DNA of 13,928 bases from a virus (lineage: Duplodnaviria > Heunggongvirae > Uroviricota > Caudoviricetes): positions 64,001-77,928 of IMG/VR virus record IMGVR_UViG_3300035661_000046; one strand, 5' to 3'. The notes below the pieces were generated by a model. It did not search any database, was not told the DNA's origin, and saw nothing but the letters and a program-made list of their open reading frames with translations. The stretch's first letter is position 1. Every line of letters starts with the position of its first letter. Both the position numbers and the translations under genes were made by a program. Positions 2,290 to 12,818 of this stretch are shown here, piece after piece.

Positions 2290-2813
2290 GGGTTGATGTT
2301 AAAGAGTACTTTAGCTGACTTATAGCTAAGAGCTTGAGGTAGTATGTTGTTCCAAGTTACTAGATTTCCATTTTTAAATCCATATGCTACTGCAAAGGAG
2401 TTATCAATAGAGTCAGTTAAATCTAGCAGGTTATCATCTGTATCACAATGTAATACTACAATGTCATCCTGAAACGCTTGTCGGTTATAATGTGGTACTT
2501 TATCCCAAAAAGAAGCAGACTTAGCAGTTACATCTATATCAGTTAAGACAACTACTCTTTGACCACTGAAGTTAATTTTCACCCATGCTAGTAAAAGATC
2601 TTCGAAGAGGTACCCTTTTACTTTTGGCGCACGATGCACCATTTCAGTAGTACTCAGGAACTCTTTGTAACCACGTTTTGAAGTAAAGTACCTATCATGA
2701 ACGGTACTATAATATTTATATAGTCCTGACGTGTCTCTAGCCCAAGGCCAGATTCTTACTAAAACGTCTCCATTTTTTTGAGTAAAATGAATTCCAAGCT
2801 TTGTAATCTTCAT
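2286..2813 (-). CDS. Hypothetical protein (175 aa)
   Basis: ORF with SD-like AAAGGA upstream; its stop overlaps the helicase start (ATGA), suggesting translational coupling. No recognised motif. Confidence 0.75.
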   Translation of the reverse strand: MKITKLGIHFTQKNGDVLVRIWPWARDTSGLYKYYSTVHDRYFTSKRGYKEFLSTTEMVHRAPKVKGYLFEDLLLAWVKINFSGQRVVVLTDIDVTAKSASFWDKVPHYNRQAFQDDIVVLHCDTDDNLLDLTDSIDNSFAVAYGFKNGNLVTWNNILPQALSYKSAKVLFNINP

Positions 2814-2839
2814 ATCGTTCCTTTGGTTGACAAAATAAA

Positions 2840-2867
2840 TAGGGTATTATATAGTACTTATACCCTA
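2840..2867. other. Inverted repeat (8-bp stem, 12-nt loop) containing the leftward promoter-like motif
   Basis: TAGGGTAT (2840-2847) and ATACCCTA (2860-2867). Confidence 0.6.
2848..2866 (-). promoter_or_regulatory. Putative phage promoter motif, variant copy
   Basis: Minus strand AGGGTATAAGTACTATATA aligns with TTGATATAAGAGTAATGTA (5653-5635). It lies upstream of the 175-aa/helicase genes and also includes part of a TATAAT hexamer. Confidence 0.5.
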
Positions 2868-2890
2868 AATACAGGAATTATTTATAGTGC

Positions 2891-2900
2891 TAAAATAAGC
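2891..2900 (+). promoter_or_regulatory. Putative rightward (late) promoter motif TAAAATAAGC
   Basis: The identical 10-mer occurs at 6461-6470. Both copies lie 30-50 bp upstream of a rightward structural-type gene. Confidence 0.5.
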
Positions 2901-2938
2901 TCATGAAACTAACTTCACTTACCGTAGGAAAATAATAA

Positions 2939-4075
2939 ATGACAACACCAGTATACAGTAACGTGTCTGCAGCTTTTCCAGCTGTCAGTTACTACACCCA
3001 GTTTGACCCCTACTTTTATACAGTAGATAACAGACCTTTATATAACTTAGCCAGTGTGGATAGTGTATTAGGAACAGGAGTAGATGCAGCTGCTAGGGCC
3101 ACACTAATTGATGCGTTGAGTGCAGCAGCCTCTTATAAAAACTTATATGGTGCTTCTCCTTTTATTACAGGTCTTGAATTAACTAATCCTGCGGCTAACG
3201 TAGTAAGAGTAGACATTGGTGCGCTATATGCTCCTTTAGCTATATCTTCTAGTGATACTAGAGTAGTAATTAAGCAAGGAGTACATGCAGTAACAACTGA
3301 CTTTTCTATTCCACCACCAGCAATTGTTGGACAGTCTGTTACTTATCTAATACAAGGTCTATACGTCGACTTTGGAGCGTCTACCTCCAGTACTTTCCCT
3401 TTCTTTGATGCAACTAACACTGTATTACCTAATACTCTGTTTAACGGAGAACTTCAGTTGCAAATAGTTACAGGTGTCGCAGCAACTACAGGAACTCAGA
3501 CTACTCCAGCGCCTACCGTAGGATGGACTCCTCTTTACGTTCTAACGGTTGACTACGGTGCTACTTCTTACTATAACGCAGCTTATGCAACAAATGCCCC
3601 TGCTAGCAAATGTTTCCCTAGAACAGGCATACCTCTGTCTAACCTAACCAGTACATCGGCTAGTATCGGTGATACTCCAGTAACAGCTTTTGCTGACGCA
3701 GCTACCCAAGGTGCTATTGGTAGAGTTCAAATACACCCATCAGCTTCACTAGTCAATCCGTACAAGCCAGTGCGTGTAAAAGTAGACTACGTTCCTTCAG
3801 TTACAGGTAATGCTTTTGCTGTAAGACTGAAATATCAAGTATTGGATGTAAGTACTTTGCTGACACCTGTGAGCTACACCGTAGGGGCTATAGAGAATAT
3901 TACAGTCACTGCTGCTGCTAACAGTATAGCCTCTTACACGTTTACCGCTAGTGTTCCAGGCTACTTAGTAAATGGAAAGAACACAATAAATTTAGTAATG
4001 GAAAGAGTTGGCGCTGATGCTAGTGATACTAATACTGGCATACTTAATGTTATGAACTTCACAGTGTATCAATAA
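2939..4075 (+). CDS. Putative virion structural protein (tail/baseplate/fibre-associated)
   Basis: 378 aa, rich in T/A/V/S/G with beta-strand-like patterning. The segment GVAATTGTQTTPAPTVGWTPLYVLTVDYG resembles motifs recalled from phage tail-associated proteins. SD-like AGGA upstream. Confidence 0.55.
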   Translation: MTTPVYSNVSAAFPAVSYYTQFDPYFYTVDNRPLYNLASVDSVLGTGVDAAARATLIDALSAAASYKNLYGASPFITGLELTNPAANVVRVDIGALYAPLAISSSDTRVVIKQGVHAVTTDFSIPPPAIVGQSVTYLIQGLYVDFGASTSSTFPFFDATNTVLPNTLFNGELQLQIVTGVAATTGTQTTPAPTVGWTPLYVLTVDYGATSYYNAAYATNAPASKCFPRTGIPLSNLTSTSASIGDTPVTAFADAATQGAIGRVQIHPSASLVNPYKPVRVKVDYVPSVTGNAFAVRLKYQVLDVSTLLTPVSYTVGAIENITVTAAANSIASYTFTASVPGYLVNGKNTINLVMERVGADASDTNTGILNVMNFTVYQ

Positions 4076-4382
4076 TATGATTGCATAATACATAAAGATT
4101 GCGTAATTCAGTAAGAATCAACGGTGCCGACCCTTCATTGAACGTCGGCATTTTTGTGCCTATACTAATTGCAATCTCTGCCAGTGATTGAATAGGATAA
4201 CCTGTAATATTCTTAGCTAGGATATGCTTCGCAGTAGTTACCAATAATGCATCTACTTCGTCTAAAAAAGTAGGGTGTAACATTGGATGAGAGTGAATGT
4301 ATATAAGCTCTGACACAGGAGGGTCTGTATCATCTCCTTTAAAGTATGCTTCTACTTTCGGGTTTGTTAAAGTGTAATTCAT
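4059..4382 (-). CDS. Hypothetical protein (107 aa)
   Basis: ORF with SD-like AAAGGA. Its 3' end overlaps the convergent 378-aa gene by 17 bp. Confidence 0.65.
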   Translation of the reverse strand: MNYTLTNPKVEAYFKGDDTDPPVSELIYIHSHPMLHPTFLDEVDALLVTTAKHILAKNITGYPIQSLAEIAISIGTKMPTFNEGSAPLILTELRNLYVLCNHIIDTL

Positions 4383-4402
4383 GTTTGTTCCTTTGAGTAA
4401 AA

Positions 4403-4434
4403 AATAAGGTAGAGTATATCACATCTACCTTATT
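4403..4434 (-). terminator. Stem-loop, terminator-like, overlapping a degenerate promoter-like motif
   Basis: AATAAGGTAGA (4403-4413) and TCTACCTTATT (4424-4434), 11-bp stem, followed by a T run on the minus strand, just downstream of the 108-aa gene. Confidence 0.6.
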
Positions 4435-4458
4435 ACTGCTATTTCCGGAGAAAATACA

Positions 4459-4785
4459 TCATAACCCACGTATGTTTGCCGGAGGTGGGTTATGACTAAA
4501 CTCACTTAATCCATAAGGTATAGTATCTGTAGATACGCCTAGATGTACCACATCAGAAGAGTCTATATAGTAGCACCCGTGGGCAGTATGTACTATTCCA
4601 TTGCTAGACACAGTCATAAGCATTATCTTCTCATTTGAATCCGATAAACACGTAGTATCTAGCAACTCTATATACCCTCCATCACTATAGTAGAATAGAG
4701 GTGAGGCAGGTTTAGTAACTACGTATAAGGCTACTCCTACTATTATAGATACAACTAATATTACAAGTGTTTTAAAAGTTTTCAT
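4459..4785 (-). CDS. Small membrane-anchored or exported protein (108 aa)
   Basis: Basic N-terminus followed by hydrophobic LVILVVSIIVGVALYVV; two Cys in the soluble part; SD AGGAG upstream. Confidence 0.75.
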   Translation of the reverse strand: MKTFKTLVILVVSIIVGVALYVVTKPASPLFYYSDGGYIELLDTTCLSDSNEKIMLMTVSSNGIVHTAHGCYYIDSSDVVHLGVSTDTIPYGLSEFSHNPPPANIRGL

Positions 4786-4807
4786 TCTGTTCTCCTAAAT
4801 TAAGGTA

Positions 4808-4833
4808 AAAAACCAGGGTAACACCTGGTTTTT
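4808..4833. terminator. Intrinsic terminator-like hairpin (potentially bidirectional)
   Basis: AAAAACCAGG-GTAACA-CCTGGTTTTT, 10 bp downstream of the stop of the 80-aa gene. Confidence 0.75.
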
Positions 4834-4843
4834 GTTTAGCGGA

Positions 4844-5086
4844 TTACTCCGCGTCAGGAATGTCACAGCTACAGCTTCCTTTAAGGAAGTGCATCCCTAC
4901 TGCTGCTGCTCCAGCAGCTACCACCGCAGCGATTGCATTGTGCTTTATGTTAAACCCCGCAAAGAAGCCTGTCTTAGCATCTTCCTTTGCATTAGCGTTG
5001 CTGGCTTTGCCCTTGGCATACGCATCTGCGTAGGTTGTTTCAAGCATCGATTCTAATTCTTTCTGGGTATATGTTTTTTCCGACAT
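4844..5086 (-). CDS. Small membrane protein, CxC-tail paralog 1 (80 aa)
   Basis: GFNIKHNAIAAVVAAGAAAVGMHFLKGSCSCDIPDAE is clearly homologous to the ORFs at 5392-5583 and 5710-5892; SD AAGGAG. Confidence 0.8.
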   Translation of the reverse strand: MSEKTYTQKELESMLETTYADAYAKGKASNANAKEDAKTGFFAGFNIKHNAIAAVVAAGAAAVGMHFLKGSCSCDIPDAE

Positions 5087-5141
5087 TTTACTGCTCCTTA
5101 ATATTTAAATTTAAATGCGCGTTTAAACACGCTACTATTAG

Positions 5142-5171
5142 AATTAGGCACAGGTCTTGCTGTGCCTAATT
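5142..5171. terminator. Perfect 12-bp stem-loop (terminator or RNA-stability hairpin)
   Basis: AATTAGGCACAG-GTCTTG-CTGTGCCTAATT, 12 bp downstream of the 47-aa ORF stop; the U-tract is weak. Confidence 0.6.
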
Positions 5172-5183
5172 TATAAAACACTA

Positions 5184-5327
5184 CTACCGTCCTGAAGCCG
5201 CATCTACTGCGCCGTTACAACGCCCAATCTTGTATGCTAATACGCTTAGGACTACTGTCACCAATAGTACAACTACGCCACCAGTCGCTACTTGAGCCTG
5301 CTCTGTTTTCTTTGAATCATTATTCAT
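5184..5327 (-). CDS. Small single-pass membrane peptide (47 aa)
   Basis: Manual translation MNNDSKKTEQAQVATGGVVVLLVTVVLSVLAYKIGRCNGAVDAASGR; SD AGGGAG; tandem TAG TAG stops. Not in the supplied track. Confidence 0.7.
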   Translation of the reverse strand: MNNDSKKTEQAQVATGGVVVLLVTVVLSVLAYKIGRCNGAVDAASGR

Positions 5328-5362
5328 GATAGTTCTCCCTAAATCAAATTAAGAAATTAAGT

Positions 5363-5384
5363 AAACCGGGTGTTACCCCGGTTT
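5363..5384 (-). terminator. Terminator-like hairpin after paralog 2
   Basis: AAACCGGG-TGTTAC-CCCGGTTT. Confidence 0.65.
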
Positions 5385-5391
5385 GTGTTTG

Positions 5392-5583
5392 TTACTCTGA
5401 GTCCGGCATGTCGCACTCACACTTACCGCTTATAAGGTACATCCCTGCTGCTGTTGCTGCTCCAGCTACTACCGCAGCAATTGCGTTATGTTTCCAATTG
5501 AAGCCCTTAAGAAAACCCTCTTTCTTAGCTTCAGCTTGTTGGTTTGTGTTGTTTGCGTTGTTTGCGTTGTTTGCGTTTGACAT
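5392..5583 (-). CDS. Small membrane protein, CxC-tail paralog 2 (63 aa)
   Basis: N-terminal NAN repeats, KHNAIAAVVAGAATAAGMYLISG hydrophobic helix, KCECDMPDSE tail; GGAG SD. Confidence 0.8.
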   Translation of the reverse strand: MSNANNANNANNTNQQAEAKKEGFLKGFNWKHNAIAAVVAGAATAAGMYLISGKCECDMPDSE

Positions 5584-5634
5584 GATGTATTACTCCATTA
5601 TGAAATTAAGGTTATTTAGAAAAGGTGCTTCTAC

Positions 5635-5653
5635 TACATTACTCTTATATCAA
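5635..5653 (-). promoter_or_regulatory. Putative phage promoter motif TTGATATAAGAGTAATGTA
   Basis: Related copies at 5944-5962, 6131-6149 and 6323-6341, all intergenic or at gene ends and all pointing left. Confidence 0.6.
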
Positions 5654-5682
5654 GTTCCAGGACGGAAATTGAAATTAAGTAA

Positions 5683-5700
5683 ACCGGGTATTACCCCGGT
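5683..5700 (-). terminator. Terminator-like hairpin after paralog 3
   Basis: ACCGGG-TATTAC-CCCGGT, homologous to 5363-5384. Confidence 0.6.
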
Positions 5701-5709
5701 CTATGTTTG

Positions 5710-5892
5710 TTACTCTGCGTCTGTCATGTCGCACTCACACTTCCCACCTATAAAGTACATACTCGCTGCCGTTGCAGCACCAACAAGTACTGCGCTGATT
5801 GCATTGTGCTTCCAGTTGAATCCAGACAAGAAGCTATCTTTCTTAGCTTCAGCTTGTTGGTTTGCGTTGTTTGCGTTGTTTGCGTTTGACAT
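5710..5892 (-). CDS. Small membrane protein, CxC-tail paralog 3 (60 aa)
   Basis: Near-identical architecture to paralog 2; ends GGKCECDMTDAE. Confidence 0.8.
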   Translation of the reverse strand: MSNANNANNANQQAEAKKDSFLSGFNWKHNAISAVLVGAATAASMYFIGGKCECDMTDAE

Positions 5893-5943
5893 TATGTATT
5901 ACTCCATTATGAAATTAAGGTTATTTAGAAAAGGTGCTTCTAC

Positions 5944-5962
5944 TACATTACTCTTATATCAA
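5944..5962 (-). promoter_or_regulatory. Putative phage promoter motif (copy in the duplicated unit)
   Basis: Identical to 5635-5653. Confidence 0.6.
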
Positions 5963-5985
5963 GTTCCAGGACGGAAATTGAATTC

Positions 5986-6090
5986 TCACAGCGCTTTGAA
6001 TGCAGCCACCTGGCTGTCACTCATGCTTTTTAATGCACCTAAGCCTAATACAACTAAGCATAAGACAACTATTACTTCTGCTGCTTTCAT
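5986..6090 (-). CDS. Small single-pass membrane peptide (34 aa)
   Basis: Manual translation MKAAEVIVVLCLVVLGLGALKSMSDSQVAAFKAL; strong SD AAGGAG. Not in the supplied track. Confidence 0.7.
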   Translation of the reverse strand: MKAAEVIVVLCLVVLGLGALKSMSDSQVAAFKAL

Positions 6091-6130
6091 ACTACTTCTC
6101 CTTAGTGTGGATAATAGGGTATACTTCTCC

Positions 6131-6149
6131 CATATTATCCTTATATCAA
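6131..6149 (-). promoter_or_regulatory. Putative phage promoter motif TTGATATAAGGATAATATG
   Basis: Shares TTGATATAAG-N4-ATRTR with the other copies; its TGA is also the stop codon of the 42-aa ORF. Confidence 0.55.
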
Positions 6150-6274
6150 TTTGTTACTTCATTATTGGATTCTGCATCCATCTTCCCTATGGTGTACGCA
6201 TAGCCGAATGTTCCCATTAACAATAATGGAAGGGATACCGCGAAGCTGATCATAGTGCGTGTATCTATAAACAT
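6146..6274 (-). CDS. Small single-pass membrane peptide (42 aa)
   Basis: Manual translation MFIDTRTMISFAVSLPLLLMGTFGYAYTIGKMDAESNNEVTN; SD AAAGGAG. Not in the supplied track. Confidence 0.7.
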   Translation of the reverse strand: MFIDTRTMISFAVSLPLLLMGTFGYAYTIGKMDAESNNEVTN

Positions 6275-6322: not shown

Positions 6323-6341
6323 TACATAATTCTTGTATCAA
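6323..6341 (-). promoter_or_regulatory. Putative phage promoter motif TTGATACAAGAATTATGTA at the head of the leftward cluster
   Basis: With flanks it reads AACTTGATACAAGAATTATGTAG versus AACTTGATATAAGAGTAATGTAG in the duplicated units, in otherwise unrelated sequence. Confidence 0.6.
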
Positions 6342-6381
6342 GTTGGGGATCCATTATTGACTTTTATCAGATATTGCTCCA

Positions 6382-6416
6382 AGAAACCCCGTCCTTCAGG
6401 GTGGGGAGGATGTCAA
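6382..6416 (+). mobile_element. Orphan IS200/IS605-family right-end-like remnant (no transposase or TnpB here)
   Basis: AGAAACCCCGTCCTTCAGGGTGGGGAGGATGTCAA: a GC-rich imperfect hairpin (CCCCGTCC-TTCA-GGGTGGGG) followed by GAGGATGTCAA, matching the remembered IS605/tnpB right-end pattern. It stands out in an AT-rich intergenic region. Confidence 0.65.
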
Positions 6417-6492: not shown

Positions 6493-8385
6493 ATGGCAAC
6501 CTATCAAGATCAAATATCTACATTCGGCAACGTTGGGGGGCAAGCAAGTCCCTGGTTCACTGTTGCGAACCAATTCTTACCAAGAAACTTGCACGACGTT
6601 ATACGTTGGGTTCGTTATATTACTATACAGTCTCCGGTAACTACGGAGGTTATTCGTAAGCAAGCTACTTACCCTATTACGGATTTTGTAGTAGAGACTA
6701 ACAGTGATGCAGTTAAAGCTAAGTATAAAGAAATATTTGATAGCTTTAAGATGAAGCAGGTATTACAGGATATCGGATTTGATCATTACACAATAGGTAA
6801 CGTTTTTGTGTCTGTATTCTTTCCGGTACATAGAACCCTTACCTGCCCTTCTTGTGCTACAGCATACAACGCTAAGAAGGCGACTTTCTTAAAGTTTCAA
6901 AAGTTCTCCTTTCACGGAGAGTGTCCCGCATGTAGCTATATCGGAGACTTCCCTAGAAAAGATACTAAGTCTTTAGATATTAAAGACATGAACCTTATTA
7001 AGTGGAACCCACAGCACATCTCAGTTAACTATAATCCAATAACAGGTGAGGCTGAATACTACTACACAATTCCAAATGATATTCGCCGCAGAGTATTGCA
7101 GGGGGATAAGCTGTTTGTTAATAGTATTCCTTGGGCTTTTATAGAAGCAATTAAATATAACCAAGACTTCAAATTCGACTCAGAAAACATATTCCATTTG
7201 AGAAACGTATCTACAGGTACGGTTATTGAGGGCATCAGTATGCCTCCGTTAATAAGCTTGTTCTCTCTAGTATTTTATCAGGCTACATTACGCAAAGCTA
7301 ACGAGGCTATTGCCACCGAATACCTAAATCCAATGCGAGTTGTATTTCCTCAGGCACAGACTGGTAACTCAGACCCTGTAGTAGGAATGAGCTTGAAGAA
7401 CTTTGCTGGAAACATGAAGCAAGCTTTAGAACAGCATAAACGTGATAAGAACCACTTCATGATAGCTCCTGTACCAATCGGGTATCAGACTATTGGCGGT
7501 GAAGGCAAGAACTTACTAGTATCTGCTGAGATTGATCAGGCTGAACAGTCTATTCTTTTAAGTCTAGGTGTATCCCAAGAATTACTAAGTGGAACCACTA
7601 ACTGGACTAGTTCTACAGTCGGATTGCGTATGTTAGAAAATACAATGAATAGCTACGTCACTCAACTTACTGACCTTATTAACTGGGTTATGAGTAAAGT
7701 AACTACATACTTGTCTGTAGAGACTTGTGCTGTCAGCCTTACCCCATTCAAGTTAATGGATAACGATGCTTTGAAGCAGACCATCGAAGGCCTTATTAGT
7801 AGCGGAGACGGTTCTATTAGTAGTCTATATGAGTTGTTAGGCATGGACTATCAAGAAGAACTCGACAAGATAACTAAGGATAAAGTATCTAAGGCTAAAT
7901 TTGATATTGAATCTCAGTTTGAAGTTGAACAAGCTCAATTCCTAGCGTCTAAGGACATTAATACTAGACTGGATGGAAATCCTCATTATAAAGAATTGCT
8001 CACTCAAGCTACTGACATTGCTAGTCAATTATCTGGTGCCGATCCTTCTACTCTTAACTCTCTGATGGTTAATTTAAAATTAGAAAACTATCCGTTATAC
8101 ATGCTTACTGTTAAGCTTATGAATGAGGGCGCTATGACTACTCCAGGCCAAGATCCTAATCAGCAAGGTCAGCAAGGTCAGCAAGGTCAAGGGGATGATG
8201 GCTCTGGGGGTGCATCTCAGCCAGGAGGTAGCGCTGGACAAGCTCAATCGGAAGGTGCTTCTACTTCTCCTGGACAAGCTGGCACTGGTTCTGCAGCTAA
8301 ATCTAATAAACCGGCGGGTACTGCACCTAAGGTCAGTAAAGGTAAGTCTCCCGTTAAACAAGTTTCTAGTACAGGAGGTAAATAA
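6493..8385 (+). CDS. Probable portal protein with a CxxC...CxxC insert and a low-complexity tail
   Basis: 630 aa. Portal-like layout: QDIGFDHYTIGNVFV, the EAEYYY / NIFHLR beta region, GISMPPLISL, and EIDQAEQSILLSLGVSQELLSG (I...LGV...LL.G pattern). Q/G/S/K-rich C-terminus. Confidence 0.7.
   Translation: MATYQDQISTFGNVGGQASPWFTVANQFLPRNLHDVIRWVRYITIQSPVTTEVIRKQATYPITDFVVETNSDAVKAKYKEIFDSFKMKQVLQDIGFDHYTIGNVFVSVFFPVHRTLTCPSCATAYNAKKATFLKFQKFSFHGECPACSYIGDFPRKDTKSLDIKDMNLIKWNPQHISVNYNPITGEAEYYYTIPNDIRRRVLQGDKLFVNSIPWAFIEAIKYNQDFKFDSENIFHLRNVSTGTVIEGISMPPLISLFSLVFYQATLRKANEAIATEYLNPMRVVFPQAQTGNSDPVVGMSLKNFAGNMKQALEQHKRDKNHFMIAPVPIGYQTIGGEGKNLLVSAEIDQAEQSILLSLGVSQELLSGTTNWTSSTVGLRMLENTMNSYVTQLTDLINWVMSKVTTYLSVETCAVSLTPFKLMDNDALKQTIEGLISSGDGSISSLYELLGMDYQEELDKITKDKVSKAKFDIESQFEVEQAQFLASKDINTRLDGNPHYKELLTQATDIASQLSGADPSTLNSLMVNLKLENYPLYMLTVKLMNEGAMTTPGQDPNQQGQQGQQGQGDDGSGGASQPGGSAGQAQSEGASTSPGQAGTGSAAKSNKPAGTAPKVSKGKSPVKQVSSTGGK
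8161..8187 (+). repeat. In-frame (CAGCAAGGT)x3 repeat encoding QQG
   Basis: Three perfect 9-bp copies in the portal tail. Confidence 0.9.
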
Positions 8386-11995: not shown

Positions 11996-12017
11996 AGTGG
12001 AAAACAAGTATTTAGTA
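11996..12017 (+). repeat. 22-bp direct repeat, copy 1 (AGTGGAAAACAAGTATTTAGTA)
   Basis: Exact match to 12797-12818; covers the start codon and first codons of the 266-aa gene. Confidence 0.95.
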
Positions 12018-12797
12018 AAGATAGCGGAAGATTACAAGAAAAAGAAAGTTGGATTAGGTAAGAGTCTAGGCATAGCGGCTCTTACTGGAACAGTAGCAGG
12101 ATCAGTTGCTCAAGTAGCGGGTTCTGCAGGGCTTATGAACTCAGGCCTATATACGGGAGAGGGTTATAATCACGAAGCAGACGGTCATACCATTCGTAGA
12201 TTCATAAAGGATAACAAATTAAAAGTAAGTTTTAATGATAAAAATCCAGATATACATAAAGTAAAGTCTACTAGATTTGGAGCACGTATTAGAGATATGA
12301 TAAAAAACCATGGTGCTCCTGCATATATTCATGCTCAGCATCATGGGTATTCCAAGAATTTTATAACTAAAAACAAAGGAAGGTTCCCTAATAAGAAAGT
12401 CAATGATGCTATAATGCACGAACTGGGGCACGCTAAAAACTGGAAGCATATGCCTGCATCCGTAGGACTAGCCTATAGTATTAACAGGGGTGCTTTAGGT
12501 ACAGCAGGGTCATTCGGTACCTCTGCTGCCCTTTTATCCAATGAGAAAACTGAAAAATATGCTCCGTTAGCTGCAGTTGCCCACCAGTCTCCTATTCTAT
12601 TGGATGAGACTATGGCTCACGTACATGCTTTCGGAGCCATTAAAAAAGCTAAAGGATTAAAAGCTGCTCTTAGATTTGCTAAGAATACCGTAGCTCCTGC
12701 TCTAGGTACATATGGTGCGGCAGCGGCGGGGGAAATAGGTGGTGCTATGTGGGCGAAACATATAGTGCATAACATTAGAAATAAAGGAAATAAGTAA
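11997..12797 (+). CDS. Putative zincin-type (HExxH) metallopeptidase-like protein with Gly/Ala-rich hydrophobic segments
   Basis: AIMHELGHA (HExxH) with a downstream Glu candidate in ILLDETMAH; GTG start after an AAGGGA SD; N-terminus MENKYLVKIA. Confidence 0.6.
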   Translation: MENKYLVKIAEDYKKKKVGLGKSLGIAALTGTVAGSVAQVAGSAGLMNSGLYTGEGYNHEADGHTIRRFIKDNKLKVSFNDKNPDIHKVKSTRFGARIRDMIKNHGAPAYIHAQHHGYSKNFITKNKGRFPNKKVNDAIMHELGHAKNWKHMPASVGLAYSINRGALGTAGSFGTSAALLSNEKTEKYAPLAAVAHQSPILLDETMAHVHAFGAIKKAKGLKAALRFAKNTVAPALGTYGAAAAGEIGGAMWAKHIVHNIRNKGNK

Positions 12798-12818
12798 GTG
12801 GAAAACAAGTATTTAGTA
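12797..12818 (+). repeat. 22-bp direct repeat, copy 2
   Basis: Exact match to 11996-12017, 801 bp downstream; its last base is the A of the next ATG. Confidence 0.95.

Follow-up and report, generated by a model that had tools for sequence, protein, structure and literature searches.

We analysed a cluster of seven small genes at positions 4459–6274 of a 13,928-nucleotide window, the terminal 13.9 kb of a 77.9-kb phage contig (IMG/VR record IMGVR_UViG_3300035661_000046, positions 64,001 to 77,928). The seven open reading frames (ORFs) are real genes, syntenic in close relatives, and six of them show significant purifying selection. The envelope of the infected cell is the probable site of action of their products. 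We tentatively favour the reading that the genes are a pre-late envelope cassette serving exclusion or counter-defence, located in a slot that has a fixed position in Arash-like myophages and is prone to recombination. By its sequence, the source phage, which is large and uncultured, is itself an Arash-like myophage with its own multisubunit RNA polymerase. For the beta-like gene of this polymerase, identity is 54% to gp206 of Salmonella phage Arash (over the full query) and 52% to the counterparts in Vibrio phages D69/D148/D181, and the features of Arash-like membership are present, namely the related polymerase beta and portal genes, shared gene order, the portal tree and a promoter word.

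The array alone would be ordinary, because small pre-late membrane gene clusters are common in lytic phages. What raises its interest is that one slot keeps a protein type across a whole phage family, and that the genes are demonstrably selected. The family has cultured members (Salmonella phage Arash and Vibrio phages D69/D148/D181), in which three or four tiny genes would suffice to test the question. The gain would be either a set of new proteins for exclusion or counter-defence or a membrane anchor used by phages that carry in an RNA polymerase of their own. An initial annotation of the window had recognized the array but missed the paralogy of the 60-, 63- and 80-amino acid proteins, the tandem duplication, the probable export of the 108-amino acid protein and the retention of the slot throughout the family.

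Seven small genes divergent from the portal gene

As the initial annotation had described, seven minus-strand ORFs fill this place, encoding proteins of 42 (6146–6274), 34 (5986–6090), 60 (5710–5892), 63 (5392–5583), 47 (5184–5327), 80 (4844–5086) and 108 amino acids (4459–4785). It had found three of them absent from the ORF track, which the three ORFs shorter than 60 amino acids would explain. The array occupies the gap between the plus-strand portal gene and a plus-strand 378-amino acid gene whose Arash counterpart is annotated as structural, and it runs leftward, in the same direction as the contig's genes for replication and metabolism. The portal gene (6493–8385, plus strand, 630 amino acids), which has PHROG portal matches (E 4.5e-11) and is syntenic with Arash gp204, forms the divergent upstream border of the slot. 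The downstream border is a soluble 107-amino acid ORF (4059–4382, minus strand; dN/dS, the ratio of nonsynonymous to synonymous divergence, 0.10), for which no family match was found.

The order of the ORFs matches in the close relatives L062, L071 and L072. Purifying selection among homologues, on which the initial annotation had staked its reading, is significant relative to L062 for six of the seven genes. In this comparison, dN/dS was 0.19 for the 42-amino acid ORF (p 3e-4), 0.31 for the 34-, 0.22 for the 60-, 0.28 for the 63-, 0.31 for the 47- (p 0.007), 0.18 for the 80- and 0.21 for the 108-amino acid ORF. The remaining gene, the 34-amino acid ORF (p 0.07), is non-significant across strains (0.27–0.57) yet conserved, and its frame is open in all three relatives. 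Strains beyond L062 were concordant for the 42-, 60-, 63-, 80- and 108-amino acid ORFs, with ranges over strains of 0.21–0.27 (60), 0.23–0.28 (63), 0.18–0.21 (80) and 0.21–0.27 (108), and non-significant for the 34- and 47-amino acid ORFs, the latter in both L071 and L072. We discounted a 270-amino acid plus-strand ORF (5408–6220) as a shadow frame, since it is broken in L062, L071 and L072 and selection acts on the minus frames. Synonymous divergence (dS) reaches 0.8–1.2 in parts of the array, far above the 0.09–0.15 of the portal and structural neighbour, and therefore the slot is a hot spot of recombination or divergence.

Each ORF also has the single hydrophobic stretch and the Shine–Dalgarno (SD) sequence that had been claimed for it. 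An SD-like word precedes all seven (AAGGAG/AGGAG/GGGAG in five, GGAG only for the 60- and 63-amino acid ORFs), and the one hydrophobic 19-residue segment per ORF scores 1.63, 2.34, 1.70, 1.78, 2.60, 1.71 and 2.75 on the Kyte–Doolittle scale (in the order 42, 34, 60, 63, 47, 80, 108). The contig has 44 other small leftward ORFs with an SD, of which only ten reach a score of 1.4 (Fisher p 1.7e-4), and the enrichment holds at p ~0.002, computed by hand, when the three paralogues described below are counted once. On a crudely implemented insertion-energy scale, only the 34-, 47- and 108-amino acid proteins have clear transmembrane (TM) helices (central in the 47-amino acid protein, single in the 34-amino acid protein), whereas the Ala/Gly-rich helices of the 42-, 60-, 63- and 80-amino acid proteins are marginal. 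In the 42-amino acid protein, the marginal helix is N-terminal and is followed by an acidic tail.

Profile scans with Pfam, PHROGs, NCBIfam and PADLOC returned nothing meaningful for any of the seven proteins; matches to EbpS and SipA were weak and far below the cut-off. The known exclusion families Imm, Spackle, Llp and Cor had no match in Pfam, PHROGs or NCBIfam, and the lipobox pattern seen in Llp and Cor is absent from all seven ORFs. ESM Atlas feature matches were all below 0.9 and unnamed.

A duplicated, predicted tail-anchored family and a probable exported protein

The 60-, 63- and 80-amino acid proteins are paralogues, the first two short and the third long with an additional N-terminal helix, in a family of 16 known sequences. 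This family is new and, as predicted from hydropathy, alignment and a low-confidence helical model (63-amino acid protein, pLDDT 60), C-tail-anchored through a small-residue helix; with the 108-amino acid protein, it makes two undescribed protein families. In its members, a polar N-tail and a Lys/Phe amphipathic stretch precede an Ala/Gly/Val helix that closes with Met-aromatic; the tail that follows is short and acidic, and a CxC in it is confined to the nearest clade. No match was found by tblastn of the 80-amino acid protein against cultured phages or by a viral-contig scan with the 63-amino acid protein, and no fused or longer forms were found, which is weak evidence. The label 'Ignisphaera' of P0017/P0022 was set aside, as it comes from a 3-kb contig in a metagenome-assembled genome that is probably misbinned.

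A short and a long paralogue stand in tandem in all relatives with context available, and this genome has one additional short copy (two, versus one in relatives). The two short copies lie in tandem units of 312 nucleotides (5671–5982, minus strand; promoter motif 5953–5961, leader, 60-amino acid ORF, hairpin 5680–5703) and 321 nucleotides (5353–5673, minus strand; promoter motif 5644–5652, leader, 63-amino acid ORF, hairpin 5363–5384). From promoter through leader to the first codons, the units are 99% identical; beyond this, dS is ~1. This pattern suggests either two alleles joined by unequal recombination or recent gene conversion. In different strains, short paralogues have exchanged the amphipathic segment with long ones, whereas the tails stay type-specific: in the 63-amino acid gene of the window, this segment has 0.93 identity to the long gene of L062 versus 0.59 to its short orthologue.

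Crude insertion energies of +1.7 to +1.9 for the 42-, 60-, 63- and 80-amino acid helices would also fit proteins that do not span the membrane, acting instead as surface-bound or released amphipathic peptides, with the extra short copy a near-neutral by-product of unequal recombination. The single short copy in relatives and the abrupt end of identity between the two units agree with this account. We consider it very unlikely, however, as each of the two copies is intact and has its promoter, SD and hairpin, and the hydrophobic segment, basic N-flank and acidic tail are kept across the 16 family members.

The 108-amino acid protein and its relatives have an N-terminal signal or anchor helix followed by a small beta domain with two invariant cysteines. 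The N termini of several relatives are signal-peptide-like, which points to a periplasmic protein and a diderm host. The structure model is good (pLDDT 84) and beta-rich, and its fold resembles those of phage proteins of 87–124 amino acids in BFVD/ESM Atlas (TM score 0.55–0.68). Among these are secreted-type, uncharacterized proteins of Pantoea phage Kyle (A0A514A8J9), Erwinia phage phiEaP8 (A0A3G1QTR8) and Serratia phage SMP (A0A9E8G4W5), which have predicted folds like that of the 108-amino acid domain but are only 10–20% identical to it (E 6e-3 or weaker) and include no characterized function. Solved structures gave no clear fold match, which does not imply a novel fold; the best were a VIA hit (Z 4.9, root-mean-square deviation 3.7, 67 aligned residues) to the putative lipoprotein 3lhn and a Foldseek hit in the PDB at E 0.35. 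A tblastn search with a 108-amino acid relative against cultured phages found no match. The exported two-cysteine protein gene also duplicates, as tandem paralogues of 108 and 93 amino acids at 673–1277 of L066.

One exported small protein beside marginal, small-residue-rich helices with a basic N-flank could also belong to lysis timing. The array would then act as an antiholin or in lysis inhibition like T4 rI/rIII, or as released anchors of the signal-anchor-release type, with weakly hydrophobic helices and a periplasmic partner that sense superinfection and hold the holin. The latent period of Arash (65 min, with a burst of 425) would suit such a role. We judge this quite improbable: T4 RI is helical, whereas the 108-amino acid model is beta-rich; no holin or antiholin profile in Pfam, PHROGs or NCBIfam matched, although short divergent holins can escape such profiles; and no endolysin or spanin was recognized adjoining the slot.

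The slot across Arash-like phages

We surveyed portal-anchored loci, inspecting 2.2 kb divergent from the portal in 19 loci with portals of 44–79% identity; six of these belong to one Arash-like subclade, and the match in L014 is doubtful. Tail-anchor-like ORFs were defined as short ORFs in which a small-residue helix comes after a basic stretch. Such an ORF is present in the slot of 17 of the 19 loci, spanning the portal tree, versus none in 29 tiles elsewhere on the contig, 17 adjacent tiles or 11 loci with portals of ~33% identity. Because the rule was set after the slot proteins were seen and the loci are not independent, this count is descriptive. The number of hydrophobic ORFs per slot ranges from one to seven. 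The slot is orthologous between loci, since the downstream 107-amino acid gene has alignable counterparts in seven of them (L003, L021, L022, L023, L025, L031 and L066). Outside the nearest clade, slot proteins have no detectable homology to the 60/63/80 family, and therefore position and architecture are conserved whereas sequence is not.

In Arash (gp201c–gp203c; OQ632216) and Vibrio phage D69 (VPHD69_0257), genes occupy the same slot divergent from the portal, and the Arash slot carries the same promoter word as the window. Like the proteins of the window, theirs are small, and a basic amphipathic stretch leads into an Ala/Gly/Val helix. Their C-flank is basic, whereas that of the 60/63/80 family is acidic, and sequence homology is not significant (best E 0.7; hhalign probability 10%). 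The only paper on this phage group found in the literature is that on Arash (PMC10585845). It reports gp202, from the slot, by mass spectrometry (6 peptides, 125 spectra) in a preparation of particles in which many soluble enzymes were present as well. This detection argues for translation but only weakly for a structural role.

A tail-anchor-like ORF beside the portal in nearly every locus, together with gp202 in particle preparations, raises the alternative that the tail-anchored protein is a core factor that tethers the portal or prohead, or the site of transcription and replication, to the inner membrane, with the other ORFs as passengers. T4 offers a precedent, as its prohead assembly begins on the membrane with gp40 and host YidC (PMC9958956), and the N-terminal helix of the long paralogue recalls scaffold proteins. 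A lead to the capsid scaffolding family DUF4355 failed, with one of 12 members matching at E 0.47 only. Against the tether, the array lies on the strand opposite to the portal and has a different promoter class, the portal is almost invariant (dN/dS 0.01–0.03) whereas the array turns over, and the proteins in the slots of distant relatives lack homology; the soluble enzymes in the Arash preparation also lessen the weight of gp202. We regard the tether as unlikely. A complex prediction for the portal and the 80-amino acid protein (score 0.00) gave no answer and was not used as evidence.

The tail-anchored architecture also recalls the ribosome-binding proteins YqjD, ElaB and YgaM (DUF883). If the analogy held, the 60-, 63- and 80-amino acid proteins would be tail anchors dimerized through their TM helices whose N termini bind ribosomes, keeping them tethered or silenced at the membrane. 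Both groups have a C-tail anchor, a small-residue, glycine-rich helix and a poorly conserved N terminus (10.1101/2024.08.16.608256), and in some slot proteins (L023, L005 and L021) a proline stands directly before the helix. YqjD and ElaB have a conserved Pro-Trp before the TM helix and a C-terminal Arg-Arg/Arg-Lys (10.1101/2024.08.16.608256), whereas the phage-encoded family of the window lacks both and has an acidic tail, and the N terminus of its short paralogues is merely a low-complexity Asn/Ala tail. The DUF883 lead was dropped, as these features are absent and neither DUF883 nor DUF883_C matched any of 12 family members at E up to 1 or any of 10 slot proteins at E up to 10. A ribosome-tethering role thus has very little probability in our estimate.

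A bolder idea, which we hold to be doubtful, is that the slot is committed across the Arash-like family to a C-tail-anchored protein whose architecture is kept while its sequence changes until it is no longer recognizable and tandem duplication tunes the number of copies. Such a protein, of a kind as yet undescribed in phages, might anchor phage transcription, replication or head assembly to the membrane as a core factor, or it might generally block host functions located in the membrane.

Other genes were seen at or near the slot in relatives. In L002 (12317–12916, plus strand), a homing endonuclease gene of Vibrio phage D69 is inserted between slot and portal. L015, a Vibrio-phage-like relative, has three tandem paralogous multi-span membrane proteins of 140–148 amino acids somewhat farther from the portal (~2744–4034, minus strand).

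Promoter-like word, proposed function and neighbouring features

The minus strand of the contig has 13 copies of the word TGRTATAAG and the plus strand none (~1.5 expected); the word is similar to an extended −10 element. The same strand bias was found in Arash (18:0) and in two IMG/VR genomes (16:0 and 13:0), and the word or a close variant is present in the slot of most relatives. In the contig, the copies are mostly intergenic, with eight or nine at 51–69 nucleotides before an SD-bearing ATG. In the array, TGATA[TC]AAG stands 58–69 nucleotides before the ATGs of the 42-, 34-, 60- and 63-amino acid ORFs. The first copy (TGATACAAG, 6332–6340, minus strand) is 66 nucleotides before the 42-amino acid ORF and is kept in L063; the second (TGATATAAG, 6140–6148, minus strand) overlaps the stop of that ORF, 58 nucleotides before the 34-amino acid ORF. 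Hairpins (z −2.5 to −4.1) lie 3′ of the 60-, 63-, 47-, 80- and 108-amino acid genes. In addition to those of the tandem units, there are two between the 47- and 80-amino acid genes (5117–5171; z −4.1), a terminator-like hairpin followed by a T-run after the 80-amino acid gene (4810–4831) and another terminator-like hairpin after the 108-amino acid gene (4403–4434; z −2.6), all on the minus strand. The idea that many of the genes have their own promoter-like motif or hairpin is thus borne out, except that no motif precedes the 47-, 80- and 108-amino acid ORFs.

The motif is not a mark of this module. It is found across the genome and the family, on one strand, and it also precedes replication and metabolic genes. 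Within this genome, 4 of the 14 copies of TGRTA[TC]AAG lie inside a 700-nucleotide part of the array, a clustering that would fit high dosage. Arash particles hold beta, beta-prime and a sigma factor (PMC10585845), so it is plausible that a packaged polymerase reads the motif. Directly behind a TGGTATAAG motif, Arash also has an unannotated 43-amino acid hydrophobic ORF (12506–12637 of L001, minus strand), which is conserved in L006 and L009.

We propose that the phage RNA polymerase and sigma factor read TGRTATAAG, which would give several short transcription units and a raised dosage of the duplicated gene. The 60-, 63- and 80-amino acid proteins would enter the host inner membrane as C-tail anchors, with the basic amphipathic stretch inside and the acidic CxC tail outside, and the Ala/Gly faces of their helices may pack against each other or against a host membrane complex. 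The 34-, 42- and 47-amino acid products would be single-span membrane peptides, and the 108-amino acid protein would be exported and disulfide-bonded in the periplasm. The net effect would be control of the infected-cell envelope, in which the entry of secondary phage DNA is blocked or host membrane-located defence or transport proteins are silenced.

T4 Imm and Spackle and T5 Llp block the entry of further phage DNA. The cassette would resemble them in being small, membrane-bound or periplasmic and made before the late genes, and small size and early expression are common among exclusion proteins (PMC9586334); it differs in having no sequence match, no lipobox and a multi-gene paralogous array. 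Sequence turnover, segment swapping between paralogues, dS of 0.8–1.2, copy-number change and one to seven ORFs per slot are consistent with a conflict locus. The interpretation in the initial annotation, a highly expressed early module that remodels the host envelope, is supported in part: the genes are real and, for six of the seven, under purifying selection, their products are predicted to be membrane-bound or exported, and the promoter class is confined to the non-structural strand. Several points weigh against an exclusion or counter-defence cassette. Profile scans gave no sequence match to exclusion, holin or anti-defence families, and four of the helices are marginal for insertion. The high dS may stem from recombination alone and, as dN/dS is below 1 throughout, positive selection is not demonstrated. 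Because the motif also precedes replication and metabolic genes, it is no proof of early timing. Finally, the near-universal presence of a tail-anchored gene at the slot is as compatible with housekeeping as with an accessory role.

The array was also said to come first downstream of the motif at the head of the cluster. This is so in this genome, but relatives have another 80-amino acid gene in front. That gene, unrelated to those of the array and found in L062, L063, L064 and L071, lies in ~320 nucleotides that are replaced here by a 58-nucleotide remnant resembling an IS200/IS605 end (6359–6416, minus strand). The remnant begins with TTGAC, coincides with a break in the alignment to L063 and matches the two ends of a TnpB element of L062 at 21 of 27 and 22 of 27 positions; a second copy is absent from the contig. 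The L062 element itself (3614–4870), of the IS605 family with a 366-amino acid TnpB, lies just past the 378-amino acid structural gene, and the matching site of the window has no TnpB element. Upstream of that structural gene, the window has a near-consensus sigma-70 promoter (2827–2855, plus strand; 11/12), which differs from the minus-strand motif. Between the RNA polymerase pieces, a perfect 22-nucleotide direct repeat (11996–12017 and 12797–12818) flanks a 266-amino acid gene, which suggests insertion by duplication; the repeat encodes an NKYL start motif.

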